Assembly (NCBI GenBank): GCA_963847605.1 | Contig: CAWKAM010000001.1 | Span: 78,351-142,350, forward strand | Direction: 5' to 3' | Length of the DNA stretch: 64,000 bases | Source of the DNA: an uncultured delta proteobacterium | Lineage (GTDB): Bacteria; Desulfobacterota; Desulfomonilia; UBA1062 | Shown: positions 9,453-39,115 of the stretch, one piece after another | How positions within the stretch are numbered: the stretch's first letter is position 1 | How the letters are laid out: each line of letters starts with the position of its first letter | Made by a program: the position numbers and the translations under genes | Notes under the pieces: model-generated | Databases searched by the model: none | What the model saw: the letters and a program-made list of their open reading frames with translations, nothing else | Told to the model about the DNA's origin: nothing

Positions 9453-10076
9453 TTGAGTAAGGACAAGAATAAGAGTGCTGCAAGGGATTGGGCAGAGGCC
9501 CTCGTAGTCGCCTTTGTGATAGCTATGTTTATCCGGGCCTTCATTCTCCAGGCCTACAGGATACCCTCCTCCTCCATGGAAGATACCCTGCTGAAAGGTG
9601 ATCATATCCTTGCCACCAAGTTCACTTATGGACTCACTATGCCGTTTACAACCAAGAAGATATGGGGATCCGACAAGATTCCGGCCAGAGGAGACGTCAT
9701 CATCTTTACCTTCCCGGTGAACCATGACATGGATTTTGTAAAAAGGGTGATCGGCCTGCCAGGTGATGTGATTGAGATCAAAGATAAGAAGGTGTTCCTC
9801 AATGGAAAGCGCTTTGAGATCCCGAATGAAAAATACACAGACCCCTTTTCCATCAATATCGGAACTAACAAGGTAAGGGATTTCTTTGGCCCGATAACGG
9901 TAAGTCCCTGGCATGTCTTTGTGATGGGAGACAACAGAGATCAAAGCTATGACAGCCGTTTTTGGGGACAAGTCCCCATAGAGAACATCAAAGGCAGGGC
10001 ATTCATCATCTATTTCTCATGGACAAGTGAAAATCCTTGGATACGTTACTGGCGCATAGGTCATCTCGTGCACTAG
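9453..10076 (+). CDS. lepB: signal peptidase I
   Basis: SSSMEDTLLKGDHILATKF (catalytic Ser box), VKRVIGLPGD and GDNRDQSYDSR motifs. Probable TTG start at 9453, 6 nt after AGGAGG (9441-9446). The ORF track reports 9432 in the same frame. Confidence 0.85.
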   Translation: MSKDKNKSAARDWAEALVVAFVIAMFIRAFILQAYRIPSSSMEDTLLKGDHILATKFTYGLTMPFTTKKIWGSDKIPARGDVIIFTFPVNHDMDFVKRVIGLPGDVIEIKDKKVFLNGKRFEIPNEKYTDPFSINIGTNKVRDFFGPITVSPWHVFVMGDNRDQSYDSRFWGQVPIENIKGRAFIIYFSWTSENPWIRYWRIGHLVH

Positions 10077-10085
10077 GAGTCGGAT

Positions 10086-10625
10086 ATGGCAGAGATACCA
10101 AGAGGTCCCAAAGAGATACACTCAATGCTCGTCAGGCTCACCGAGGAGCTCATGAACTCCATCAGCGCATGGGACAATGTGGCTTTTATCGGGGTAAGAA
10201 ACGGAGGCGAGCTGATTGCGAGAGGATTGGTGAAACTCCTTGAGGAAAAGATTGCAAAACAGATCCCCTTGGGGGTTTTGGATATCGCCCTGTACCGGGA
10301 TGACCTTACGAGGAGAAAGTTCTATCCTGAGGTCAGGAGTACGGACATCCCCTTTGTCATTGACCACAAAGATATCATACTTGTGGATGATGTTCTCTAT
10401 ACAGGACGGTCTGTACGGGCTGCCATAGATCACATAGTAGACTTGGGCCGACCGGGCAGGATTTACCTGCTGGTGCTGTTTGATAGGGGTGGAAGGGAAC
10501 TGCCCATCCAGGCTGATTTTGTTGGCATGAAGATAAATCTGCCTGATGAGCAGGTCATCAAGCTCGAGGCTTCCGCTGATAAGGAGAACATACCCGGGGT
10601 TATCATCAGCGAGGTGAAAAGATGA
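10086..10625 (+). CDS. pyrR: bifunctional pyrimidine operon regulator / uracil phosphoribosyltransferase PyrR
   Basis: PRTase motif VILVDDVLYTGRSVRAA. 179 aa. Directly upstream of pyrB. Confidence 0.9.
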   Translation: MAEIPRGPKEIHSMLVRLTEELMNSISAWDNVAFIGVRNGGELIARGLVKLLEEKIAKQIPLGVLDIALYRDDLTRRKFYPEVRSTDIPFVIDHKDIILVDDVLYTGRSVRAAIDHIVDLGRPGRIYLLVLFDRGGRELPIQADFVGMKINLPDEQVIKLEASADKENIPGVIISEVKR

Positions 10626-11554
10626 ACTGGCCTCACAAGGACCTTATTGCCATACAGGACCTGACGAGTGAGGAAATCCACACCATTTTAGACATGAGCA
10701 AGTCTTTCAAGGAGATCAGCAAGCGGGACATCAAAAAGGTCCCGGCACTGAGGGGCAAGACCGTTGTGCTGCTCTTCTATGAGGCATCGACCAGGACACG
10801 ACTGTCCTTCGAACTTGCAGCAAAACGCCTGAGTGCGGATACCATGGCCTTGTCCGCATCAGGGTCCTCTTTTGCAAAAGGCGAGACCATAATGGATGCC
10901 GCGCTCAATGTCATGGCCATGTCGCCCGACTGCATCGTGATCCGTTACCCCTATGCAGGGCTCCCCAAGAAACTTGCCCAGGAACTGCCCTGCTCCATTA
11001 TCAATGCAGGAGACGGAACACATGAACATCCATCACAGGCCCTGCTGGACATGTATTCAATGCGGGAACACTTCGGCAAGCTCGATGGTCTGCATGTAGC
11101 TATTGTTGGAGATATTCTGCATTCTCGGGTCGCCCGGTCAAATATCTACGGACTCAAAAAGGTCGGTGCCCATGTCACCGTCGTAGCGCCGAAGACGTTT
11201 CTTCCTGTAGGTGTGGAAACCTGGGGTGTGAATATTGCGACGGCATTTGATCCCGTCGTGAGCGAAGCGGATGCAATCATGATGCTCAGGGTACAAAAAG
11301 AGCGGATCCACGAACAATACTTCTCAGGCGAACGGGAATATGCGTACTTCTACGGCCTCAACAAGAAGCGGGTGGATAAGATGAAACCAGATGCAATCAT
11401 TATGCACCCGGGGCCTATGAACAGGGGGGTGGAGATCACCCATGACGCCGCAGACGGAAGCCGCTCGATTATCCTCAATCAGGTGGAAAACGGGGTTGCC
11501 GTCAGGATGACCCTCCTGTACCTGTCGCTAGGAGGAAATGTCAATGTGGATTAA
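10622..11554 (+). CDS. pyrB: aspartate carbamoyltransferase catalytic subunit
   Basis: STRTR carbamoyl-phosphate-binding motif and an HPxQ motif (HEHPSQALLD). 4-nt overlap with pyrR. Confidence 0.9.
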   Translation: MNWPHKDLIAIQDLTSEEIHTILDMSKSFKEISKRDIKKVPALRGKTVVLLFYEASTRTRLSFELAAKRLSADTMALSASGSSFAKGETIMDAALNVMAMSPDCIVIRYPYAGLPKKLAQELPCSIINAGDGTHEHPSQALLDMYSMREHFGKLDGLHVAIVGDILHSRVARSNIYGLKKVGAHVTVVAPKTFLPVGVETWGVNIATAFDPVVSEADAIMMLRVQKERIHEQYFSGEREYAYFYGLNKKRVDKMKPDAIIMHPGPMNRGVEITHDAADGSRSIILNQVENGVAVRMTLLYLSLGGNVNVD

Positions 11555-15969: not shown

Positions 15970-16042
15970 GGGCCCATAGCTCAATTGGTAGAGCCACCGG
16001 CTCATAACCGGTAGGTCCCTGGTTCGATTCCAGGTGGGCCCA
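15970..16042 (+). tRNA. tRNA-Met (anticodon CAU; G1-C72 paired, so elongator-type or tRNA-Ile2/lysidine)
   Basis: Cloverleaf is readable: acceptor GGGCCCA/TGGGCCC, D-arm GCTC..GAGC, anticodon stem ACCGG/CCGGT with loop CTCATAA, T-arm CCTGG-TTCGATT-CCAGG. No encoded CCA. Confidence 0.85.
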
Positions 16043-17644: not shown

Positions 17645-18001
17645 GCAGTATGTTGGTGTCTTAAAGAGCTACAAGCCGCAAATGAGTATTGTGTACAACC
17701 GAAGTATAGAGTATATAGGCAGCATAAATTTTCACTCTTATAATTGATAATTATGTAATGATATTGCTCTAGGAAGGAGGTATCCATGGTGGTTCTCCTC
17801 TTTCATCACGAACCCGCCTGAACCTCGGATGATTACAAATTCACATGCAAAAAATACCCTTAAAGTATTTTAAAAATTATCCGTATATATATTGTGACAA
17901 TGAATATTGATGAATTATATGCTTTTTTCGATCAGAACGCAGGGCGCCAAGGCTTATTTTATACATTAAGCAATTCCACAAAACCAAGGAGGAATGAAGC
18001 A

Positions 18002-18469
18002 ATGTTAAAAATGTTCAGGTCAAACAAAAAAGGTTTTACATTGATCGAGTTGATGATCGTCGTGGCGATCATCGGTATCCTGGCGGCCATCGCAATCCCG
18101 GCGTATGCCAACTACACGAAAAAGGCGAGGCTGACAGAGGTGTCGCATTCTATGGGAGCCTTAGGTAATGCTCAAATAGATTACTACAACAACCAGAGTA
18201 TATATCCAACATCATGCGCGAACATAGCAGCGGTACAGAACACCTTTGGTGTAAATATCATCCCTCAGACCTATATTACTGATGTATCAATAACCGCGCA
18301 TAACGCTGCGAACCCGGCCAACGCAGATATTACAGTTACATTTAATGGCACGATAGACAATACTTGGGCCGGCAAAACACTCACCTTAAGGGTGGCACAG
18401 GGGGTCCGTGGTTTATGGAATCCGAATAATAACGATACGCTCCCCCCAGCGTTTATTCCAAAACAGTAG
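18002..18469 (+). CDS. pilA: type IV pilin (type IVa major pilin-like)
   Basis: Leader [11 protein letters not shown] followed by [24 protein letters not shown] (prepilin peptidase site G/F, Glu5). RBS AAGGAGG at 17986-17992. The ORF-track start at 17894 is an upstream extension. The C-terminal two-thirds is AT-rich and variable. Confidence 0.85.
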
Positions 18470-19420: not shown

Positions 19421-19524
19421 AGACGTTGTCATCCTGTCGTCGTCACAGGGACATATGTCTTTTAAAAAGGCCCCTTTCTTTCATTCGCACCATTCCATTT
19501 GATATATTACATCAACACGAAGAA

Positions 19525-19597
19525 TGCCCCCGGCAAGGATTGAACTTGCGACACCAGGATTAGGAATCCTGTGCTCTATCCACTGAGCTACGGGGGC
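19525..19597 (-). tRNA. tRNA-Arg (anticodon CCU)
   Basis: Reverse complement reads GCCCCCGTAGCTCAGTGGATAGAGCACAGGATTCCTAATCCTGGTGTCGCAAGTTCAATCCTTGCCGGGGGCA. Anticodon loop TTCCTAA. No encoded CCA. Confidence 0.85.
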
Positions 19598-19679
19598 ATT
19601 GGGCCTTAATTAACCGCCCGGCCATCTCTAGTCAAGGAGAAAATGGCAAGGTAAAATCAGCCTTGGCAGGCCTCCGGAG

Positions 19680-24989: not shown

Positions 24990-25240
24990 TGATAACTCCT
25001 TTGCACGATCATTGTAGCATGCAGGTGTATTCCATCCAAGTATTAAGTCTCCACAGGTTAAATAACTTCTTTGCTTTATATCAACTGGTGATGCTTTATT
25101 TTAAAAAAGCCCATCTAGTAAAATGATATTGTTAGATCGAAGGTAGGTACTCAAAGTCACGCATGGGCTGCCCCATACACAACCTATGCAAAGCGGACGT
25201 ATCTTTGTTGGATATATAATTTCATCCGATGCCTGATTTT

Positions 25241-25311
25241 AAACAAAAAAATAGCCAGAAGAAGTTTAGGTCTTAGGACAAAGCACGAGAGGACTTGTCC
25301 CCTCTTCTGGC
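25241..25311 (-). terminator. terminator-like hairpin plus U-run on the minus strand, ~210 nt downstream of the copA stop
   Basis: Plus-strand GCCAGAAGAAG...CCTCTTCTGGC (11-bp arms, 1 mismatch) preceded by AAACAAAAAAATA. On the minus strand this reads stem-loop then UAUUUUUUUGUUU. Confidence 0.5.
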
Positions 25312-25520
25312 GTAAAGGAGGTCAGAACAACACTTGTTGTGATTTTGTATATGACACAAGTAAAATGATAGGTCAATAAAAAAATGATTTTTGGATCAAA
25401 CATACTATATATTGTAAGCCTTAAACATGTCTTACAGTAAGACATAGCTTTGCCGCGGTTTATTTGCCTGATTATATGAGACTCCTCCCCCCGCAGCCAA
25501 ATACGTGTGAATGGTGTGTG

Positions 25521-27944
25521 CTAGATATTTGCGTTTCTTAGCCGCATGGCATTGGTGATGACGGAGACGGAGCTTAAGCTCATGGCGGCAGCCGCGATCA
25601 TGGGTGACAGGATGATCCCGAAGAAGGGATACAGTATCCCTGCTGCAATGGGCACACAGGCGATGTTGTAGAAAAACGCGAAAAAGAGGTTCTGTTTGAT
25701 ATTGCGCATTGTCGCCTTGCTCAGGAGCCGCGCCCTGGCAATGGCCCTTAAATCACCCTTGATGAGCGTGACATGTGCGCTCTGGATGGCAATATCCGTC
25801 CCTCCTCCCATAGCAATCCCCACGTTCGCCTGTGCAAGGGCCGGGGCGTCATTGATACCGTCTCCGGCCATGGCGACTAGGCGGCCTTGTTCTTGAAAAT
25901 CTTTGATCATGGCCGCCTTTTCTGTTGGTGACACCTCCGGAATGACATGGTGGATGCCTAGTTTCTTGGCGATTACTTCTGCAGAGGTTTTTCTATCGCC
26001 CGTGAGCATGACCAGGTGAAGGCCATCCTGGACAAGCATATGTACTGCAGACGTAGATGTTTCCTTTATGGTATCAGAGACCGCAATGACCCCTTGCGCC
26101 TTGAGATCAACGGCAATGTACATCACGGTAGCACCCTGGCTTGAAAGCTGCTCTGCCTGGGGATGTAACCATCCGGGCTCTATGTGGAGGTCTTCTAACA
26201 GGCGCTCGTTTCCTAATGCAACCCTATAACCATCCACAATACCGGTAATACCTTTACCGATATGGGCGGTGAATTCCGTATGGGAAGTCGGTTGGATCCC
26301 ACGCAAAATGGCAGCCTGTACGATGGCCTGAGACAAGGGATGCTCACTGCCCTTTTCGATGCTTGAGGCCAGATAGAGGAGCTTGTTCTCGTCAAATGTA
26401 CCACTTGGAATAATCGTTTGAAGTGTAGGTTTGCCTTCGGTGAGCGTCCCGGTCTTGTCTATTACCATGGTGTCGACTTTTTCAAGGGACTGGATGGCCT
26501 CGGCATCACGGAAAAGAACACCGAGACGCGCCCCCATGCCTGTGGCTACGAGGATGGACATGGGTGTAGCGAGGCCTAAAGCGCATGGGCAGGCTATGAT
26601 AAGGACCGATACTGCTGATACGATGGCATAGGGTAGCCTGGGCTCCGGCCCTATAATCATCCATAATATAAAAGAGATAAGAGAGACGGCAAAAACCGCA
26701 GGGACAAAATACGAAGCCGCCGTATCGGCAAGTTGTTGGATAGGTGCCCTGCTCCTGCTTGCCTCGATGGTGAGGCGAACGATCTGTGAAAGAAGCGTCT
26801 CGCTGCCAACCTTCTCGGCTTTCATAATAAAAGAGCCGTTCCCATTCACCGTGGCCCCCACAACCTTGTCACCCTTTGATTTTTCCACGGGTATGGGTTC
26901 GCCCGTGATCATGGATTCATCAAGAGCGCTTGCGCCCTCCAGGATAATTCCGTCTACGGGGACCTTTTCACCGGGCCTCACCCTCAACCGGTCACCGTGA
27001 CGGATCATATCAAGTGCGATATCTTCTTCGCTCCCGTCTTCCCTGATGATCCGGGCCGTCTTTGGCGCAAGCCTCAAGAGGGACCTGATAGCCTCACCTG
27101 TGCGGGCTCTCGCTTTGAGCTCAAGTACCTGGCCCAAAAGGACAAGGGTGACGATCATGGCAGAAGCCTCGAAATAAACACCCACAGTCCCCTCTTTGCC
27201 CTTCAGCGTTGCCGGAAAGATATCCGGGAGAAGACTTGCGACAAGGCTGTAGCCAAAAGACACGGCTACGCCGATGCCGATGAGGGTAAACATGTTGAGG
27301 TTCCTTGTTTTCAAAGATACCCAGGAACGAACAAAGAAAGGCCATCCTGCCCAGAGGACCACGGGTGTTGCCATGAGAAGCTCCGTCCATACAAAGGTCT
27401 TTTCGGATGCGATGCCTTCAAAAGGATGGCCCGGCAGCATATGACGCATTGCAATAACTATAAGAGGGATGGTCAATACGAGCCCAAAGAAGAACCGCCT
27501 CTTCATGTCGATATATTCAGGGTTTTCCGTTTCTTCCAAAGAAGGGGCCATAGGCTCGAGAGCCATGCCGCACTTGGGGCAGATGCCCGGTCCGTCGGTG
27601 ATGACCTCCGGGTCCATCGGGCAGGTGTATTTCCCTGGGGCACCTCCCTGCATTATGGTTGGCGGTTGTGTCATAGAGAGGTTCGGACCAGAGAGCTTGG
27701 CAATATATGTTTGAGGGTCATTCTTGAACTTCTCCAGGCATTTGGGATTGCAGAAGTAATATGTTGCCCCCTTATATTCATAGGGAATGTAAGCATCTTT
27801 GTCTGTTGTGCTCATCATGCATACAGGATCAATGAACTCAAGTTGTCCTGATGCGGGGGAGCAATGAGGGCAGCCCTTGAGAGAAGTCTGAATCTGAATT
27901 CCTTTTTCCATGATACCTATGGGCTTGTCTGACGGATTATCCAC
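25521..27944 (-). CDS. copA: copper-translocating P1B-type ATPase with N-terminal YHS/TRASH-like and HMA metal-binding domains
   Basis: CPC transmembrane motif ([13 protein letters not shown]), DKTGTLT phosphorylation site, [10 protein letters not shown] and HP motifs. N-terminus has a YHS-like domain (DPVCMM...[19 protein letters not shown]) and a Cys-rich segment (YTCPMDPEV...CPKCGM). Confidence 0.9.
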
Positions 27945-32587: not shown

Positions 32588-34659
32588 TGGCGAGGACACT
32601 CCTTTTTGAGATCGGCACCGAAGAGATTCCCTCGGGTTTTATTGTCCCTGCATTGAACTTCATGAAGGCCTCCATTACGGAGAAGTTCTCTGCCCTCAAG
32701 CTTGGACATGATACGGTACAGATGTTCTCTACACCCAGGCGGCTGGCCATGAGGATATCGGGTCTGGTTGAGACCCTGCCTGATGCAGTGGAAACCAAGA
32801 TGGGCCCGCCCAAGGGCATTGCATATGACAAGGATGGCAACCCCACCAAGGCAGGCCTCGGATTTGCGCAGACCTGCGGGGTGGACATCTCTGAGGTCAG
32901 CATTGCCAAGACACCCAAGGGAGAGTACCTTTCAGTCACCAAGACCATACCCGGGAAACCCATGATTGAGGTACTGCCGGGGATATTTGAAGAAATGATC
33001 GGGAAGATCCCGTTTACCAAAACCATGCGCTGGTCGAATCCGGATGTAAGGTTTGCCCGGCCTGTACACTGGATCCTCTCTCTGTTCGGCAAGGATGTCC
33101 TGAGCGTGAAGTTCGGCAACATAAATGCAGGCAGGTTCACCTATGGCAACAGGTTTATGGCCAAGGGACCAATCGAAGTCAAAGATCCTTCTGACTACGA
33201 GCAGCTCCTGGAGAAGGACTATGTCATCCCTGACCTGGAAAAGCGAAAAACAGCCATCTGGAAGGCCGTGGGTGACCAGGCCAAAAAGATCGACGCCGAG
33301 GTCCTGGACAAGGACCTGCTCGATGAGGTGGTGAACCTGCTGGAATACCCCCACCCCATCATCGGCACCTTTGATGAGGCATTCCTCAACCTTCCCATAG
33401 AGGTCTTGGTTACGGTGATGAAGCACCACCAGAGATACTTCCCCATGTATGCGGCCGGCGACGGCTCCAAACTCAAGGCCTCGTTCGGCGCCTTCAGCAA
33501 TATCGTGCCCAAGGACGACTCAGTGGTGAGGACCGGCAATGAGAGGGTCCTCAAGGCTCGACTGGATGATGCGAAATACTTCTTCGATGAGGACCTCAAG
33601 GTGCCCTTGAAGGTCTATGCCGACAGACTCAAGGACGTGATCTTCCATAAAGACCTGGGGACCTCCTATGAAAAGGTAGAGCGATTCAGCCAGGTAGCAC
33701 TTTCACTGGCTGACAGGCTCGCACCGGACAAGAAGGATAAGGTTAAAGAGGCGGCATATCTTTGCAAGGGAGACCTCAACAGCCTCATGGTGGGCGAGCT
33801 GCCCGAGCTCCAGGGGATCATGGGAAGGGAATACGCCCTCCGGCAGGGCATCGATCCAGAGGTTGCCTGTGCCATCCGGGAGCACTATCTGCCCGCATCC
33901 GCTGAAGACAAACTGCCTTCGGATGTAGTGGGAGACATAATCGGCATTGCCGACCGGATCGATACTATCTGCGGCTGCTTCGGCATCGGTATGGTCCCTT
34001 CCGGCACCTCTGACCCATATGCTCTGCGCAGGCAGACTATTGCCATTGAGAACATCGTGCTGGGTAAGGGCTACCGCATTTCCATTTCGTGGCTTGTTGA
34101 GGAGTCGCTTAAGCAGCTCAATGCCAAACTGAAAAGGCCGGTCCAAGAGGCAAGGAATGATACAATCGCATTTTTTGCAAACCGCTTTGTATCTCTTCTT
34201 CAGGGAAAGGGCATCCCCGGTGATGTAATCGAGTCCGTTATCGGGACCTTTGATGACCCGGTGGACACCTTTCAGCGGGCGCAGGCCTTGGCAACCATGC
34301 GCAAGGAACCGTGGTTCGAGTCCATCTGCGCGGCAAGCAAGCGGGTGGAGAATATCCTCAAGAAGGCAGCCACACATGCAAAGGTAAATCCTGACCTCTT
34401 TGCCCAGGACGAAGAGAAGGCCCTCCATAAGGCCTTCCAGACCATGGAGGGTGCATTTACCGCCCATACGCAGAAGGGCGAGTACACAGATGCCTTGAAG
34501 CTGCTTGCAGGCCTCAAAGAGCCCATTGACAGCTTCTTCGAGAAGGTGCTCGTCATGAGCGAAGATGTGGCGGTCCGTGAGAACCGCATTGCATTACTGA
34601 AGGGACTTGTCTTGCTGTTCGATAAGGTGGCAAAGTTCTCAAAGATTTCTACGCAGTAG
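32584..34659 (+). CDS. glyS: glycine--tRNA ligase beta subunit
   Basis: 691 aa. Overlaps glyQ by 4 nt. Has the typical GlyS N-terminal domain and anticodon-binding C-terminus. Confidence 0.9.
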
Positions 34660-34664
34660 TAATC

Positions 34665-35744
34665 ATGAAAAAGTCCCATCCCGCAGAGGGTATCAGGAGG
34701 CGGCCTGAGGCATCGAGCAAGGCCGATATGAGGGATGCCTTCTCCATTGATGTAGATCGCATTCTTCACTCCCAGGCCTATACATCCTACATCGACAAGA
34801 CCCAAGTGTTCTATCTTGTGGGGCACCAGGGTATATCCCACCGGGTAATTCATGTGCAGCTGCTGTCCCGCATCGCCAGGACGATCGGCAGAAAGCTGGG
34901 GCTCAATGATGATCTCATCGAGGCCGTCGCCATCGGCCATGACATCGGACACCCGCCCTTCGGCCATGACGGCGAGCATTACTTAGACGAACTCTGCATA
35001 GATGCCGGCATCGGGCCATTCCGCCACAATCTCCAGGCTATCCAAGCCCTTGAGCGCATCGAGAAGGCGGGCTTAGGCCTGAATCTTTCATTACAGGTTC
35101 TTGATGGTATCCTCTGCCACAACGGCGAGATGACCGAGCAGTCCGTCTCACCCGTGAAAGGGGTGACCTTCGAGGCTTTGGACCGGAAGATGCACGCTGC
35201 ACTCAAGGGAGAAAGCCCTTTGCCCATGACAATGGAAGGTTGCCTGGTAAGAGTTGCCGACACGGTGAGCTACATCGGAAGAGACATCGAAGACGCCATA
35301 TCGCTCGGCATCATCTCAAGAAATGAGCTCCCGAATGCTGTGGTACGCGTGCTAGGCGATACCAATGGCAAGATCGTCTATACCCTGGTGGAAGACCTTG
35401 CCCGGCATTCTACAGGAGAGGTTATTGTATATTCCCCACGGATCTTCAAGGCACTTATGGCCTTGAAGGAATTCAACTACGTGAAGATCTACACCAACCC
35501 TTTGGTCAAGGTGGAGTCGACTAAGATCAAGGCCATGTATTCGCTTGTATTCTTCCGCCTCGTGGAAGACGTTGTAGAAAAAGATCAATCTTCACCGGTC
35601 TTCATAAACTTCCTGAACAGGCTTGGCGAGCGGTACCTCCACACCCATAATCCTTTCGAGATGGTGAGGGATTTCATCGCAGGGTTGACCGATTCCGCTT
35701 TCCTGCGACTCTTCACAGAACTGTTTGTGCCAAGGGTGTTATAA
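34665..35744 (+). CDS. dGTP triphosphohydrolase-like HD-domain protein
   Basis: HD motif region ...HVQLLSRIARTIGRKLGLNDDLIEAVAIGHDIGHPPFGH. 359 aa. Confidence 0.85.
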   Translation: MKKSHPAEGIRRRPEASSKADMRDAFSIDVDRILHSQAYTSYIDKTQVFYLVGHQGISHRVIHVQLLSRIARTIGRKLGLNDDLIEAVAIGHDIGHPPFGHDGEHYLDELCIDAGIGPFRHNLQAIQALERIEKAGLGLNLSLQVLDGILCHNGEMTEQSVSPVKGVTFEALDRKMHAALKGESPLPMTMEGCLVRVADTVSYIGRDIEDAISLGIISRNELPNAVVRVLGDTNGKIVYTLVEDLARHSTGEVIVYSPRIFKALMALKEFNYVKIYTNPLVKVESTKIKAMYSLVFFRLVEDVVEKDQSSPVFINFLNRLGERYLHTHNPFEMVRDFIAGLTDSAFLRLFTELFVPRVL

Positions 35745-35950
35745 AAAAGGAGTTTAGATATAAAAAGAAACCAATATTTTTGATGATCCTGAAGAAAATA
35801 ACTTGCTGTATATTGAATTCAAGTATATTTAGGCATAATATGTGAAAATAAGGATTAGTTATAGTAGAAAAACTCTGGAACAAATATGTTTATGTTAATA
35901 AATTGATATAGTTTAGATGATCAAACCGATTGAAAATATCCAGGAAGAAG

Positions 35951-36010
35951 AACAATCATAATAGAAATGAATACACAAATTAAATAGTGAGGGAAATATG
36001 AGTGTAAGAG
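35951..36010 (+). repeat. left copy of an imperfect ~50-bp direct repeat (promoter/RBS/start-codon region of the RHH gene)
   Basis: Core 35961-36008 is ~80% identical to 36861-36908. Both copies end in ...GGAAA-ATGAGT..AAG. Confidence 0.6.
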
Positions 36011-36237
36011 GAAGGAAACCGCTAGAACTGAGAAGTGGTGATAAAAATGTTAAGCTCATTAAGAGAAACTACTACATCGAGGAGCGATACGCAAAGGCCC
36101 TTACAGTACTTTCTGCTTTGACGGGAAAAGAGCTGTCACTCCTTGTGAATGAGGCAATCGGCGGCTTAATTAAAAAGTATCAACCCATGACGGATATCGA
36201 CCTTCTCAAATTGAAAGCGATTAAGAAAGAGGATTAA
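35998..36237 (+). CDS. small ribbon-helix-helix (CopG/Arc-like) putative DNA-binding protein
   Basis: 79 aa. The pattern VKLIKRNYYIEERYAKALTVLSALTGKELSLLVNEAIGGLIKKY fits beta-strand-helix-helix. RBS GAGGG upstream. Sits in the AT-rich islet. Confidence 0.45.
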   Translation: MSVRGRKPLELRSGDKNVKLIKRNYYIEERYAKALTVLSALTGKELSLLVNEAIGGLIKKYQPMTDIDLLKLKAIKKED

Positions 36238-36273
36238 CTTGCATAGTCCAGAAGCAAGCCCTGATACAATTAA

Positions 36274-36549
36274 GTGGTGGATATCACTTCACCATTCATT
36301 CGAAAAGTCTCATCGGAATACCTCGGGTTTACCCCTCATGAGATCCTGGTTGCATCCTTGATTAAAGAAGGAAAAAGCTCAAAGGAAATTGCAGAACTCT
36401 TGAATATATCACTTAATACCGTCCATACTTACCGGTATAAGATTCGCATAAAAACAGGCTTGAAAAACAATAAGGTAAATCTGAGGTCTTATTTACAGAC
36501 TTTTAGGATAGGAGAGGCCTTCTCAATATTAGTGACAATCGATCACTAA
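36274..36549 (+). CDS. stand-alone LuxR/GerE-type HTH transcription regulator
   Basis: FTPHEILVASLIKEGKSSKEIAELLNISLNTVHTYRYKIRIKTGL matches the LuxR C-terminal HTH consensus. Has a GTG start and no receiver or ligand domain. Confidence 0.6.
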   Translation: MVDITSPFIRKVSSEYLGFTPHEILVASLIKEGKSSKEIAELLNISLNTVHTYRYKIRIKTGLKNNKVNLRSYLQTFRIGEAFSILVTIDH

Positions 36550-36629
36550 TATATAACCTATCTTTCATTATCGACAGTTGTTTCCTTCTATTACATAATT
36601 ATCTTTAATTGCATAGCCAAGGATGCATT

Positions 36630-36890
36630 ATGAAAGAGAAAAAATTCTGGGACAGATTATGTGAATATCAGGAAATAACCATCCTTGAGATGATGGAATT
36701 GATTGCTGATTTCCGAGAAGAAGCGAAACAGGCAGGGAAAAAGATGTCTGTGCTGATCATGGACGAGTTATATAATAAATGTAATTTGATCCTCCTGCAA
36801 AATAGCGTCCTTCATTACTACTCAATATCAAAGGATTTTCATCTCACTAGTCCAACAACAATGGAAATGAATGCACAAATTAAACAATGA
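36630..36890 (+). CDS. hypothetical small protein (86 aa)
   Basis: ATG at 36630 is 6 nt after AAGGA. No recognisable motif. Its 3' end overlaps the right repeat copy. Confidence 0.35.
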   Translation: MKEKKFWDRLCEYQEITILEMMELIADFREEAKQAGKKMSVLIMDELYNKCNLILLQNSVLHYYSISKDFHLTSPTTMEMNAQIKQ

Positions 36891-36910
36891 TAGGAAAATG
36901 AGTACAAGCT
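36851..36910 (+). repeat. right copy of the imperfect direct repeat, carrying a truncated start (ATGAGTACAAGCTGA, MSTS*)
   Basis: See the left copy. Aligned by eye. Confidence 0.6.
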
Positions 36911-36942
36911 GAACAAGATATTAGTATCCCTCGTACAATAGA

Positions 36943-38280
36943 TTAGTTCCACGTCCTCTCATCAACCAACAGTTTGGCGTCATCCTTAAGGCTTCTTGGT
37001 TCAAGGAACTCAACAGCATCGACCTTGACAGTGCAGATTTCCTGAAAGACCTTTTCGAACTGCAACTGGAGTGCCGGGCGGTCTATGTCAACACCCCTGT
37101 TGTCGAGCCTAGCGGTCAGGATGTCCCGGTGGCCGGAGCGGGTGATGACGAGTTGGACACCAATCCCTTCGAAGCCCGCACAGACCCTTTTCACCTGGCT
37201 TGGGGCGACGAACATGCCCCGCACCTTAACGGCATCGCCCACCCTTCCTGCAATACCTGCGAGCCGTAATGATGTCCTGCCGCAGGGGCAGGGCTCTTCG
37301 ATGATGCTTGAAAGGTCGCCAGTGCCGAAGCGCAACAAGAAAAAGATGTGATTCAGACGTGTTACAACAACTTCGCCCAGTTCACCAGGATTTACATGCA
37401 TACCCGTTGCAGGGTCCACGATCTCAACAATCACTTCCTCGCACAGGTGCCAGCCCTTTTTCGCAGGGCACTCATACGCCACATCACCGACCTCTGTGGC
37501 GCCGTACATCTGGAAGGTGTCAATGCCAAATTCGGTCTCGAACCGCTGCCTTAGGGACGGCTGGAGCGGTTCGGCAGCAAAGCTGGCACGCTTGACTTTG
37601 AAATCTTTTGAGAAATCAAACCCCATTTCTCGCGCTTTGTCGATGATGGACATGAGGAAGCTCGGCGTTCCGGTATAACCGGTGATATTCAAATCTTTGA
37701 TGAGCTGCACCTGCTGCTGGGAGGTTGAGGTGCCTGAGGGGACCACTGTTGCGCCCACCATGTTGAGTCCTCCATGAAATGTGAGCCCGGCTGCCACCAT
37801 ATGGTAAGAGAAGGCGTTCAGAACAGTGTCGCCTTTAGTAAATCCGGCTGCCTTGTAAGCCCTGGCCCACAGCGGGTCATCAGAGCCAAGATGAGGTTCA
37901 TAGACCGGCCCAGGGGAGATGAAGATACGCTCGATGTGCGCATCAGGATCAGCAAGACCGCCATAGGGAGGATTCTGGGCCTCGATACCTACAATCTGTT
38001 CCCGCGAAACAATGGGGAGCTTCTCTAGGTCCTGTACAGTCTGGATATCTACAGGTTTCAAACCGCGATCCTGTAAGACGGACCTGAGCTTGGGAGACCT
38101 CTCAAAGCCGGTACGTACCATTTCGGCCAGCCGCTTGTCCTGATATGACTGACGCTCTGAGCGGGACATGGTTTCGAGATCATCAAGATACGTGCTCACA
38201 ACATCCTCCTTAAAAAATAGGCATGGTGCTATTGGCGTTAGGTGCGAGGTTAAGAGAATATATCTCTCTTCCTTAACCAA
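36943..38280 (-). CDS. phenylacetate--CoA ligase family protein (PaaK-like / F390-synthetase-like adenylate-forming enzyme)
   Basis: 445 aa. PaaK-type core (…TGYTGTPSF…, …YGATEVG…). Last gene of the Liv-type ABC operon. Confidence 0.85.
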   Translation of the reverse strand: MVKEERYILLTSHLTPIAPCLFFKEDVVSTYLDDLETMSRSERQSYQDKRLAEMVRTGFERSPKLRSVLQDRGLKPVDIQTVQDLEKLPIVSREQIVGIEAQNPPYGGLADPDAHIERIFISPGPVYEPHLGSDDPLWARAYKAAGFTKGDTVLNAFSYHMVAAGLTFHGGLNMVGATVVPSGTSTSQQQVQLIKDLNITGYTGTPSFLMSIIDKAREMGFDFSKDFKVKRASFAAEPLQPSLRQRFETEFGIDTFQMYGATEVGDVAYECPAKKGWHLCEEVIVEIVDPATGMHVNPGELGEVVVTRLNHIFFLLRFGTGDLSSIIEEPCPCGRTSLRLAGIAGRVGDAVKVRGMFVAPSQVKRVCAGFEGIGVQLVITRSGHRDILTARLDNRGVDIDRPALQLQFEKVFQEICTVKVDAVEFLEPRSLKDDAKLLVDERTWN

Positions 38281-38302
38281 CAGGCCAGCGCCCAGCCCCT
38301 TT

Positions 38303-39115
38303 TTACAACCACCTCTTCCTTCGCTTGTATGACTTTACGTCCCGATACGACCGTGCTGCACCGCCTGCGCTCACACCCAGGTAGAACTCCTTTACATCCG
38401 GGTTTTCCTTCAGCTGCCCCGCTTCGCCCTCCATCACGACACGGCCGTTTTCCAGGACGTATCCGAAATGGGCGATCTGCAGGGCCATATTGGCATTCTG
38501 CTCTACCAGGATAATGGTGGTCCCCTGCTCCTCGTTGATCCGCTTGATGATCCGGAAGATCTCTTTCACAATAAGCGGTGCAAGACCGAGTGACGGCTCA
38601 TCCAGCAGGAGAAGCTTGGGGTGGGCCATGAGCGCCCTGCCCATGACAACCATTTGGAGCTCGCCGCCGCTGCAGTATCCGGCCAAAGTCTTCCTGCGCT
38701 TCACCAGGGTTGGGAAGTAATTGTAGACCATTTCTAGGTCCTTTTTATAAGGCTTGGTCCAACGCGTGGCCGTACCGACCCTCAGGTTTTCTTCGATAGT
38801 GAGGTATTTGAAGGGCTGCCTGCCCTCGAGGACCTGGATGATGCCGAGCCTGGTGATCTCTTCGGGTGAGAGATTCTGGACATGTTTGCCATTATAGATA
38901 ATATTGCCGTCCGTGACCTTGCCGTTTTCCGGTTTGAGTAGACCTGAGATGGCCTTGAGCGTCGTGGTCTTGCCTGCGCCGTTGCTGCCCAGGAGAGAGA
39001 TGATGCGGCTCCTCGGCACCTTCAGGGATACACCCTTGAGGACCTGGATGACATCTGAATAGACTACACTGATGTTGTTGAGCTGGAGCAGGGTGTCGGC
39101 GTTTAGGGCTTCCAA
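38303..39115 (-). CDS. livF: branched-chain amino acid-type ABC transporter ATP-binding protein (LivF-like)
   Basis: Walker A GSNGAGKTT, the ABC signature CSGGELQ and Walker B LLLDEP. Confidence 0.9.
   Translation of the reverse strand: MEALNADTLLQLNNISVVYSDVIQVLKGVSLKVPRSRIISLLGSNGAGKTTTLKAISGLLKPENGKVTDGNIIYNGKHVQNLSPEEITRLGIIQVLEGRQPFKYLTIEENLRVGTATRWTKPYKKDLEMVYNYFPTLVKRRKTLAGYCSGGELQMVVMGRALMAHPKLLLLDEPSLGLAPLIVKEIFRIIKRINEEQGTTIILVEQNANMALQIAHFGYVLENGRVVMEGEAGQLKENPDVKEFYLGVSAGGAARSYRDVKSYKRRKRWL

Follow-up and report, generated by a model that had tools for sequence, protein, structure and literature searches.

PAS-LuxR one-component regulators are known from Streptomyces, with PimM, PteF and CfaR as described examples (review PMC9774167). 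The ancestral gene of the locus analysed here was of this type, with N-terminal PAS and a C-terminal LuxR/GerE helix-turn-helix (HTH) domain in one polypeptide. Unlike the single-PAS Streptomyces regulators, the Desulfomonilia proteins are 710-1165 aa long and combine several PAS domains with a coiled-coil linker, and their genes are flanked by small ribbon-helix-helix (RHH) genes and by a gene referred to below as ORF3. In the window, by which we mean the whole 64-kb stretch of DNA that was analysed, this architecture is missing and an HTH stump is all that is kept, while the ortholog in the close relative L029 still has it. A literature search yielded no description of an RHH/multi-PAS-LuxR gene cluster. 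Based on the comparisons presented here, the AT-rich islet at positions 35745-36942 is very probably the eroded remainder of a vertically inherited, lineage-specific regulatory cluster of Desulfomonilia, which resides in a fixed slot and was hollowed out by deletions.

The preliminary description of this DNA reported an AT-rich segment with three small ORFs, and both statements were borne out. What it stated as fact proved correct throughout, except that the words "stand-alone" for the LuxR ORF and "orphan" for ORF3 need qualification. The GC content is 0.28-0.43 across positions 35600-37100 (300-nt windows), compared to 0.52 for the whole window and 0.53-0.57 for the flanks. The individual pieces range from 0.25 to 0.41: 0.249 in the spacer upstream of ORF1a (35745-35997), 0.412 in ORF1a (35998-36237), 0.380 in the LuxR ORF (36274-36549) and 0.352 in ORF3 (36630-36890), the three ORFs all being on the plus strand. 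On the left, the islet is flanked by a gene for a dGTPase-like HD-domain phosphohydrolase (HD; 34665-35744, plus strand; Pfam HD E=2.2e-10, HD_assoc E=2e-5), and on the right by a gene for a PaaK-like AMP-binding ligase (36943-38280, minus strand; Pfam AMP-binding E=6.8e-17), the last gene of a liv-type ABC operon. Both flanking genes have a GC content of 0.53. At third codon positions (GC3) the islet genes have values of 0.41-0.46 versus 0.66 for HD, and across the window's clade the cluster has values of 0.41-0.47. The low GC content seems to be a property of the cluster itself and not a sign of recent import, and the GC3 difference to the flanks would also be compatible with the cluster as a whole having been acquired horizontally long ago. 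An explanation of the islet by a riboswitch or an sRNA was rejected, because Rfam scans (of the islet at E<=1, and of the whole window) gave no match there.

The slot is shared by the relatives, in the order glyQS, HD phosphohydrolase, cluster, PaaK-like gene and liv ABC genes, and it was conserved in all the related genomes that we found, even where identity falls to about 71% for ORF3 and 77-87% for HD. ORF3, with or without ORF1a, is located between HD and PaaK in L001-L007, L008-L018 and L028-L033, the last group consisting of species-representative MAGs named Desulfomonilia, "delta proteobacterium" or "Bacteriovoracaceae". The HD protein (77-100% aa identity in L001-L010 and L028-L033) is always encoded upstream of the cluster, and downstream of it there is always the gene for the PaaK-like protein, which has 76-100% aa identity across all relatives. 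In its fuller form the cluster comprises the 79-aa ORF1a, a multi-PAS-LuxR regulator of 767-1165 aa and the 86-aa ORF3; some genomes additionally have a diverged second RHH gene (ORF1b). A full-length PAS-GerE gene is present between ORF1a and ORF3 in L008/L032, L009/L010, L029, L031 and L033. In L011-L013 it is found directly upstream of ORF3, and neither ORF1a nor HD has a match in these loci. Elsewhere in the 64-kb window we detected no paralogs of the three ORFs; a weak tblastn match at 1622-1738 lies inside a TruB-like gene. An extra segment in L005 was considered as a remnant of the LuxR 3' end, which would speak for a tandem array of whole cassettes, and this was discarded, since the alignment revealed a 78%-similar copy of the segment from the ORF3 tail to the PaaK end. 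The L005 contig is full of split genes and was not relied upon.

The preliminary description took the second ORF for a stand-alone GerE/LuxR-type HTH protein. This view did not hold: 36274-36549 is the 3' stump of a multi-PAS-LuxR regulator gene, containing its last approximately 76 codons. Read from a GTG, the stump has 91 aa and matches the GerE model (PF00196) at residues 19-66 (E=1.1e-10), with 41.4 bits where the cut-off is 23.5. Positions 36280-36504 correspond to the last 75 codons of the regulator, which encode the GerE HTH; 14 unrelated codons follow, owing to a +1 insertion ahead of the former stop. The stump aligns with the C-termini of the regulators of L029, L011, L031, L033 and L025; its identity to the L011 protein (936 aa) is 89% over residues 861-935. 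It is not an independent gene: relatives have the homologous sequence as the C-terminus of 767-1165-aa proteins, or do not have it at all.

The extent of the loss is evident from L029, which retains the full 767-aa regulator with four PAS stretches (PAS_9 E=8.4e-51) and GerE (E=7.1e-10). According to our BLASTN analysis, two blocks are collinear, window 35600-36270 with L029 3722-4333 (87% identity) and window 36279-37000 with L029 6465-7185 (94.9% identity). The 2131 bp at L029 4334-6464 are missing from the window; they include the regulator's ribosome-binding site and start codon as well as codons 1-691. The deletion junction lies between 36270 and 36279, at the end of what remains of the spacer between ORF1a and the regulator gene (36238-36273). 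An in-frame TAA (36271-36273) directly precedes the GTG, and neither a Met start nor a Shine-Dalgarno sequence nor a promoter of its own was found for the stump. Since these start signals are lacking and codons 1-691 are gone, the supposed stand-alone LuxR protein is the regulator's 3' end. The dS of HD to L029 is 0.109, which indicates that the deletion is recent. The decay went further in other strains: the stump is wholly deleted in all 21 long conspecific contigs read that carry an identical ORF1a protein, and it is missing in L001-L006 and L028. The contigs read covered 23 of the 106 index blocks with ORF1a. We also considered that the L029 regulator was acquired by recombination with an unlinked paralogous cluster. 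This was rejected, because it resembles the syntenic orthologs (50-65%) more than the L025 paralog (43%).

Probably the HTH stump is silent, i.e. not translated. One could nevertheless imagine that after loss of the sensor it works as a stand-alone, GerE-like constitutive DNA-binding module, which is transcribed by read-through from ORF1a. The 74-aa GerE protein of Bacillus subtilis has no domain besides GerE, which means that the stump would be large enough, and in size and domain content it does resemble GerE and other LuxR-type HTH-only proteins. Its 91-codon frame is open, its HTH is complete, and it agrees with L029 in the encoded residue at 72 of the 75 homologous codons. Moreover, it starts 36 nt downstream of ORF1a and no terminator is predicted between them, so that transcription and a weak translation from the GTG could still occur. 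We regard such a function as rather improbable. In contrast to GerE and the HTH-only proteins, the stump arose from a recent deletion that also took the translation signals, and it is polymorphic and mostly lost. It begins without ATG and Shine-Dalgarno sequence directly behind a stop codon, its own stop is frameshifted, and it carries a Q to L exchange at a Gln common to all seven full-length proteins compared (L008, L009, L011, L022, L025, L029 and L031). Its conservation is not meaningful given the recent deletion (dS about 0.1), and the differences to L029 (five synonymous, three nonsynonymous) are too few to judge selection.

The two other ORFs of the islet are intact. ORF1a (35998-36237, plus strand) encodes a 79-aa RHH-type protein, which barely passes the threshold of the Pfam model RHH_3 (PF12651; 21.8 bits with a cut-off of 21.6, E=1.9e-4). 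It has 220 homologous clusters, some of them named "ribbon-helix-helix domain-containing protein" by NCBI. When compared to L001, L002 and L006, it shows no nonsynonymous and two to five synonymous differences, and to the outgroups dN is 0.06-0.09 with dS saturated. As judged from these substitutions, the intact ORF1a is under strong purifying selection. The AlphaFold2 monomer model is poor (pLDDT 60.5), with helices at 27-40 and 43-61 and no strand. Similarly to the RHH repressors (CopG/Arc/MetJ; RHH_3), the two predicted helices are properly placed after a conserved KRNYYIEE segment. However, the marginal RHH_3 match, an extra C-terminal helix and the lack of a relative in PDB by sequence (searched with the family profile) set ORF1a apart from these repressors, and so does the distribution of its family, an unusually conserved multi-copy set limited to Desulfomonilia and related MAGs. 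The AT-rich spacer upstream, which is kept in L001-L007 and L029, contains a promoter-like site at 35930-35959 (TTGAAA-18-AATCAT, 9 of 12 consensus positions) that may serve ORF1a.

ORF3 (36630-36890, plus strand) had been called an orphan, a label which needs qualification: it belongs to a lineage-restricted family of 21 homologous clusters with 71-100% identity, 18 of them exactly 86 aa long and the others 83, 85 and 71 aa. Only three representatives exist in 1.84 billion clustered proteins, and we found no Pfam or NCBIfam match. With a dN/dS of about 0.07 to the outgroups, ORF3 is under purifying selection according to the coding sequences. The AlphaFold2 model (pLDDT 84; helices 2-35 and 38-66) predicts a helical hairpin with a disordered tail. 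A fold search with this model against PDB gave generic helical hairpins only (ROP, CHMP3, designed bundles; E>0.3), and the family profile had no sequence match in PDB. The preceding spacer (36550-36629), which is kept in all relatives including the stump-less ones, harbours the Shine-Dalgarno sequence AAGGA and a putative promoter of ORF3 (TCGACA-17-CATAAT, 36571-36599; 10 of 12 matches).

Small proteins, the RHH type of the second gene and a distance of only 7 nt between ORF3 and ORF1b in L008 and L009 bring to mind a toxin-antitoxin-like pair with the toxin gene first, as in BrnT/BrnA, and thus a decayed addiction module. We consider this very unlikely, because ORF3 has no toxin-family match in Pfam, NCBIfam, PADLOC or PHROGs and is predicted to be a plain two-helix hairpin. 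Further, most genomes have retained ORF3 in the absence of ORF1b, the a-type RHH gene frequently stands alone, and the locus is chromosomally fixed. Type II systems have a toxin-family partner tightly coupled to the RHH gene; no such partner is present here, and the gap between ORF1a and ORF3 amounts to 392 nt in the window and 129 nt in L001.

The islet also contains the pair of direct repeats noted earlier as similar at about 80% over about 50 bp, and this similarity is statistically significant. Positions 35953-36013 and 36853-36913 (61 nt each, plus strand) align without gaps at 75% identity with a start-to-start spacing of exactly 900 nt. BLASTN of the two copies gives 81.8% over 44 nt (35960-36003/36860-36903; E=2.9e-6), and the Smith-Waterman score is 31, compared to a mean of 12.9 (sd 1.6, maximum 19) for shuffled sequences. 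In a second test the z-scores were 11.8 for the window, 11.6 for L029 and 8.5 for L001. In L029 the copies are 2965 nt apart, with the intact regulator between them. No further copies were found elsewhere in the 64-kb window. A template/variable repeat pair of a diversity-generating system was dismissed, since the mismatches show no restriction to adenines and a reverse transcriptase is lacking.

The left copy comprises the leader, the Shine-Dalgarno sequence GTGAGGG and the first five codons of ORF1a. The right copy takes in the final 12 codons of ORF3 together with a decayed Shine-Dalgarno sequence (ATGATAGG) and a dead four-codon ORF, MSTS* (36898-36912, plus strand; ATG AGT ACA AGC TGA), whose sequence, given already in the preliminary description, we confirmed. 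Its position and its four codons suggest that it is a stub of ORF1b: it starts 7 nt after the ORF3 stop, with the same spacing as the intact ORF1b in L008 and L009, and its MST start matches that of ORF1b in L009 (MSTKGK...). L001-L007 and L029 have this stub as well. ORF1b and ORF1a share 35-44% identity, and the order a-type RHH, PAS-GerE, b-type RHH recurs at the unlinked locus L022.

The two repeats are best explained as the leaders, Shine-Dalgarno sequences and starts of two paralogous genes, ORF1a and ORF1b, and the extension of the right copy into the ORF3 tail would come from the former coupling of ORF1b to ORF3. The proposal of a promoter duplication came near to this but was not quite right, as it is the leader, the Shine-Dalgarno sequence and the start of two paralogous RHH genes that are duplicated. 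Ahead of the start codons the two copies are about 80% similar, far more than the ORF1a and ORF1b coding sequences in the outgroups. The repeat is statistically detectable only in the window's clade, so plain old paralogy is not sufficient and gene conversion or later local copying must be assumed. We infer that the likeness reflects old paralogy which gene conversion maintained or renewed in this clade. The upstream part of the left copy reads ..IEMNTQIK* and resembles the ORF3 C-terminal tail. For an ORF3-like remnant upstream of the left copy, only an eight-residue match was obtained (E=9), which is not usable.

RHH proteins commonly autoregulate via repeated operator sites. Both copies are well kept in the clade (94-98% between the window, L029 and L001) and their similarity peaks in the non-coding leader, as would be expected of a functional cis element present twice on purpose, for example an RHH operator or a shared leader for translation control. 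However, the conservation of the repeat within the clade is no higher than that of the neighbouring sequence (94.9% over 36279-37000), and upstream of the a-type RHH genes at the unlinked loci L019, L022 and L025 the Shine-Dalgarno sequence is the sole shared motif. In addition, the right copy belongs to a dead gene with a degraded Shine-Dalgarno sequence, and the outgroups L008 and L009 have both RHH genes intact without the repeat. A purposeful cis element is therefore improbable, and we prefer the explanation by paralogous gene starts.

The AT-richness relative to the flanks and the direct repeats had also led to the proposal of an acquired or decaying mobile module with att-like or duplicated ends. 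In line with this, IS elements adjoin related clusters elsewhere (DDE_Tnp_1 in L011, IS110 in L025 and L034). The decay part of the proposal stands, while its mobile or acquired part with att-like ends is not supported, and we consider it extremely unlikely that the repeats are att sites or target duplications of an element that moved. The position of the islet is the same in all relatives and no empty site was seen. The repeats are internal, the left copy beginning 208 nt inside the AT-rich segment (35953 versus 35745) and the right copy ending 29 nt before the PaaK stop (36913 versus 36942), and neither copy is found at any edge of the observed indels (2131 bp and about 264 bp). Moreover, the more distant carriers L031, L008, L009 and L033 have the cluster with syntenic flanks and no significant repeat (z<=2.4), an outcome that the preliminary description had itself named as refuting its reading. 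As stated in the preliminary description, no integrase or transposase is encoded (ORFs of 33500-39000), and the Pfam matches of the islet proteins are limited to RHH and GerE. There is no tRNA gene in or beside the islet, the nearest being at 15970-16042 and 19524-19598. ORF1a has no match in phages or plasmids and ORF3 none in plasmids, and both are without PADLOC or PHROG match.

We propose the following course of events for the decay of the cluster in its slot. The ancestral cluster would have had the order ORF1a, multi-PAS LuxR/GerE regulator, ORF3 and ORF1b, with 7 nt from ORF3 to the start of ORF1b. The older of two deletions, which L029 already has, would have cut ORF1b to the four-codon stub. 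A deletion of about 2.13 kb then took the ribosome-binding site, start and codons 1-691 of the regulator, leaving the 76-codon HTH stump, which most conspecific strains have since lost too. ORF1a and ORF3, each with its own promoter-like region, remain intact and under selection. With its nested deletions, lost start signals, frameshifted stop and presence/absence polymorphism between strains, the locus resembles other pseudogene remnants and cases of reductive decay. Compared to these there is nothing unusual about it; it is a clean, small example, in which the intact, the stump and the null states are all sampled.

The main value of this analysis is a correction: an AT-rich patch with repeats, which looks mobile, is a case of in-place decay according to the comparison with relatives. 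This is ordinary gene decay and no long-standing open question is affected by it. The locus provides a population series, from intact through stump to null, of how peat-bog Desulfomonilia lost a large PAS-LuxR sensor-regulator. Further, two uncharacterised small families, the conserved multi-copy RHH proteins and the 86-aa predicted helical hairpins, travel with such regulators. It is tempting to speculate, though we consider it unlikely, that the 79-aa RHH family (conserved at 75-100% across unlinked loci) and ORF3 form an undescribed accessory layer partnering the multi-PAS-LuxR regulators, or that the deletion made a new constitutive HTH-only regulator. If the former were true, the window would represent a natural experiment, in which the sensor was deleted and its partners were kept.

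The AT-rich islet is limited by the stop of the gene encoding an HD-domain phosphohydrolase (34665-35744, plus strand) on the left and by the stop of a PaaK-like ligase gene (36943-38280, minus strand) on the right. Its GC content in 300-nt windows is 0.28-0.43 vs 0.52 window-wide, and its three small ORFs have the coordinates and lengths first described, which bears out both observations of the preliminary description. ORF1a (35998-36237, +; 79 aa) is barely over the threshold of the Pfam family RHH_3, ORF2 (36274-36549, +; 91 aa counted from GTG) matches GerE (E=1.1e-10), and ORF3 (36630-36890, +; 86 aa) has no family match. The upstream spacer has a GC content of 0.249, ORF1a of 0.412, ORF2 of 0.380 and ORF3 of 0.352; GC3 of the three ORFs is 0.41-0.46 vs 0.66 for the HD gene. 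Promoter-like hexamers, which are consensus matches only, are located 5' of ORF1a (35930-35959) and of ORF3 (36571-36599), and no terminator was predicted on the plus strand of the islet. An 18-nt similarity of 78% (TTAACTTGCATAGTCCAG / TTTAATTGCATAGCCAAG) between the sites directly 5' of the ORF3 start (36604-36621) and directly 3' of the ORF1a stop (36234-36251) is probably due to chance. The remaining clearly AT-rich spots of the window, with GC 0.34-0.38, are both plain intergenic: 17645-17893 precedes a type IV pilin-like gene bearing a 12-residue motif (17894-18469), and 24990-25520 is upstream of a heavy-metal P-type ATPase gene (25521-27944, minus strand).

The exact ORF1a protein is present on many metagenomic contigs. 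In 21 of the 21 long contigs read, recO, glyQ, glyS and the HD gene lie on one side and the PaaK-like gene and a liv-type ABC operon on the other, and ORF1a is followed by ORF3 without the LuxR ORF. Aligned with the window, these contigs show a clean gap of approximately 264 bp (window ~36240-36503), while L007, a short contig, is identical to the window. Further related loci (L008-L018 and L028-L033) were obtained via divergent ORF3 family members and a scan of species-representative genomes. In all of them ORF3 is directly upstream of the PaaK-like gene, and the HD gene and ORF1a are on the opposite side wherever the contig extends far enough and ORF1a persists. Between ORF1a and ORF3 the relatives harbour a large gene, whose product has several PAS domains and a C-terminal GerE domain and is 1024 aa (L008/L032), 891 aa (L009/L010), 936 aa (L011-13), 853 aa (L031), 1165 aa (L033) or 767 aa (L029) long. 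L029 originates from a MAG named Desulfomonilia bacterium SPRUCE 367 and is a close relative (HD identity to the window 96.7%, dS 0.109). IS elements (DDE_Tnp_1, IS110) adjoin related clusters or solitary RHH genes elsewhere (L011 1245-2900, L025 7404-8429, L034 823-4302), and the one in L011 occupies the place expected for the HD gene and ORF1a.

ORF2, which had been described as a stand-alone LuxR-type gene, proved to be the 3' stump of this large regulator gene. The final 75 residues of the large regulators align over their whole length with residues 3-77 of ORF2 (DITSPFIRKVSSEYLGFTPHEILVASLIKEGKSSKEIAELLNISLNTVHTYRYKIRIKTGLKNNKVNLRSYLQTF), which shows 89% identity to L011 and has 72 of 75 residues the same as in L029. 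Comparison of the window with L029 by blastn revealed two collinear blocks, window 35600-36270 corresponding to L029 3722-4333 and window 36279-37000 to L029 6465-7185 (94.9% identity), and the 2131 bp at L029 4334-6464 are absent from the window. They comprise the final 59 nt of the spacer (ribosome-binding site, ATG) and codons 1-691 of the 767-codon gene. What remains starts with a GTG right behind an in-frame TAA, has neither a Met nor a Shine-Dalgarno sequence, lacks the PAS domains that define PAS-LuxR proteins, and is not conserved as an independent HTH-only regulator gene. In addition, a Q to L exchange (EIQVASL) is found where all seven full-length proteins compared (L008, L009, L011, L022, L025, L029, L031) have Gln, and a one-base insertion ahead of the old stop (..ACC TTG GGA TAG in outgroups vs ..ACT TTT AGG ATA GGA.. 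in the window) adds 14 unrelated codons; both are further marks of decay. The five synonymous and three nonsynonymous differences between the stump and L029 are too few to gauge selection. In the common allele (L001 type) the stump is gone, too. The TTAGGATAG variant is common to this allele and the window and is not found in L029. A second, nested deletion would agree with this, but an independent larger deletion could also have produced the L001-type allele. With intact, stump and null alleles all documented, the islet is a case of ordinary gene decay.

The direct repeat noted in the islet was confirmed. The regions 35953-36013 and 36853-36913, spaced by exactly 900 nt, align without gaps over 61 nt with 75% identity (81.8% across the central 44 nt by blastn), and the local alignment score of 31 is far above that of shuffled sequences (12.9 +/- 1.6, maximum 19). 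The right copy indeed terminates in the dead 4-codon ORF ATG AGT ACA AGC TGA (36898-36912). Four observations speak against the proposed att-like or element-end nature of the repeats. Both copies are inside the AT-rich segment, away from its edges; in L029 they are 2965 nt apart with the intact regulator between them; and they are found at none of three gap boundaries (2131 bp, ~264 bp, and 83 bp in the upstream spacer of L005, a conspecific contig). Furthermore, the similarity between left and right copies is high in the window (z = 11.8), L029 (11.6) and L001 (8.5), but not significant in the more distant carriers L031 (1.2), L008 (2.4), L009 (1.0) and L033 (0).

The right copy overlaps the final 12 codons of ORF3 (..MEMNAQIKQ*), and the left copy in the matching register reads ..IEMNTQIK*. 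Since both share this ORF3-tail-like reading, the repeated unit can be described as ORF3 tail, Shine-Dalgarno sequence and start of an RHH gene. The ORF3 stop in L008 and L009 is followed, 7 nt on, by the start of a small gene, ORF1b, whose product has diverged from its paralog ORF1a (35-44% identity). The window ATG at 36898 has the same spacing, its mini-ORF begins with MST like ORF1b of L009 (MSTKGK...), and its Shine-Dalgarno sequence, which is GTGAGG(G/A)G where b-type genes are intact, has degraded to ATGATAGG. Based on this position and the four codons, we infer that MSTS* is a stub of ORF1b, and thus the repeats would be the leader-and-start regions of two RHH paralogs. The same stub is already present in L029, which places this loss before the regulator deletion. 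L031 keeps a weak resemblance between the copies, an exact 11-mer (TAGAAATAAAT) in unchanged register. An unlinked cluster (L022 7001-11154) contains, in the same order, genes for an a-type RHH protein (82 aa), a 1164-aa PAS-GerE protein and a b-type RHH protein (77 aa); the 165-nt spacer 5' of the b-type gene, which may be an eroded ORF3, closes with ..GAACAGTGAGGGG, the ORF3-tail-plus-Shine-Dalgarno string of L008 and L009. The 11-mer and this string point to an old junction of ORF3 end and RHH start, copied together with the RHH gene. The high likeness of the two copies in one clade is most simply accounted for by assuming gene conversion. No shared motif beyond the Shine-Dalgarno sequence was found 5' of three unlinked a-type RHH genes, and this makes a dedicated operator less likely.

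The proposal of an acquired mobile module failed the defining tests of a mobile islet. There is no recombinase in or beside the islet and no tRNA near it, ORF1a and ORF3 have no match in PADLOC and PHROG, and no relatives were found among 72,556 plasmid records for either protein or among 50,697 phage records for ORF1a. Moreover, synteny of the cluster extends over genomes with differences of 13-23% between their HD proteins. The intact regulator of L029 has a GC content of 0.447 (GC3 0.474), and the cluster in L009 equals its genome (0.546 vs 0.545); low GC thus belongs to the cluster in the clade of the window, which is especially AT-rich because the bulk of the coding sequence, richer in GC, was deleted, and spacers and small genes stayed behind. 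Recent acquisition is not supported, while the whole cluster could be of ancient horizontal origin. A toxin-antitoxin reading was rejected on its defining tests.

Both small genes are under constraint. ORF1a has no nonsynonymous and two to five synonymous differences to L001, L002 and L006, and dN to outgroups is 0.06-0.09 with saturated dS, indicating strong constraint. Its family comprises 220 clusters (75-100% identity among the best 120) and is multi-copy, with several paralogs from the same samples. It is unusually conserved and restricted to Desulfomonilia-type MAGs. A multi-PAS-GerE gene adjoins the family member at three of seven distinct loci (window locus, L022, L025), and the gene is solitary at the other four (L019, L034, L036, L038). 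The monomer model of ORF1a is poor (pLDDT 60.5), with two helices at the positions expected for RHH. In L029 (4118-4300), ORF1a has a 57-bp in-frame deletion of codons 7-25 (basic N-terminal arm); a damaged ORF1a beside a full regulator is the reverse of the pattern in the window.

For ORF3, dN/dS to outgroups of about 0.07 indicates constraint. Its family comprises 21 clusters (71-100% identity; 18 of exactly 86 aa; one labelled Desulfomonilia), with only three representatives in a library of 1.84 billion proteins. In the AlphaFold2 model (pLDDT 84), helices at 2-35 and 38-66 form a hairpin, and the tail is disordered. Fold and sequence searches of the PDB gave no informative match for ORF3. 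Residues 73-86 (36846-36890) are predicted to be disordered, yet T73, S74, E79, N81 and A82 are invariant across 19 aligned family members, genomes without ORF1b included; a short linear motif, or constraint at the nucleotide level, could be the reason. L005 carries an extra 307-bp segment 3' of ORF3 (10576-10882), with a second partial ORF3, a 78%-similar copy of the stretch from the ORF3 tail to the PaaK end and short patches similar to the 3' end of the LuxR gene. Since this contig has many split genes, the segment and the 83-bp spacer gap (9880-9960) are likely assembly noise.

The ancestral regulator belongs among the PAS-LuxR one-component regulators, but is much larger than the Streptomyces PimM-type proteins (PMC9774167) and has several PAS domains. 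In the literature searched, we found no description of PAS-LuxR proteins paired with small RHH genes and ORF3. ORF1a would act as a small repressor or co-regulator of the RHH type, and ORF3, small and helical, as a partner protein; each is presumably expressed from its own promoter, and both would have outlived the sensor-regulator they formerly accompanied. Its loss may be covered by other PAS-LuxR paralogs of the genome; such loci (L025-27) were recovered from samples that also yielded L002, L005 and L006. What is modestly novel is limited to the possibility that the conserved, multi-copy RHH family and ORF3 serve these regulators as accessory partners.
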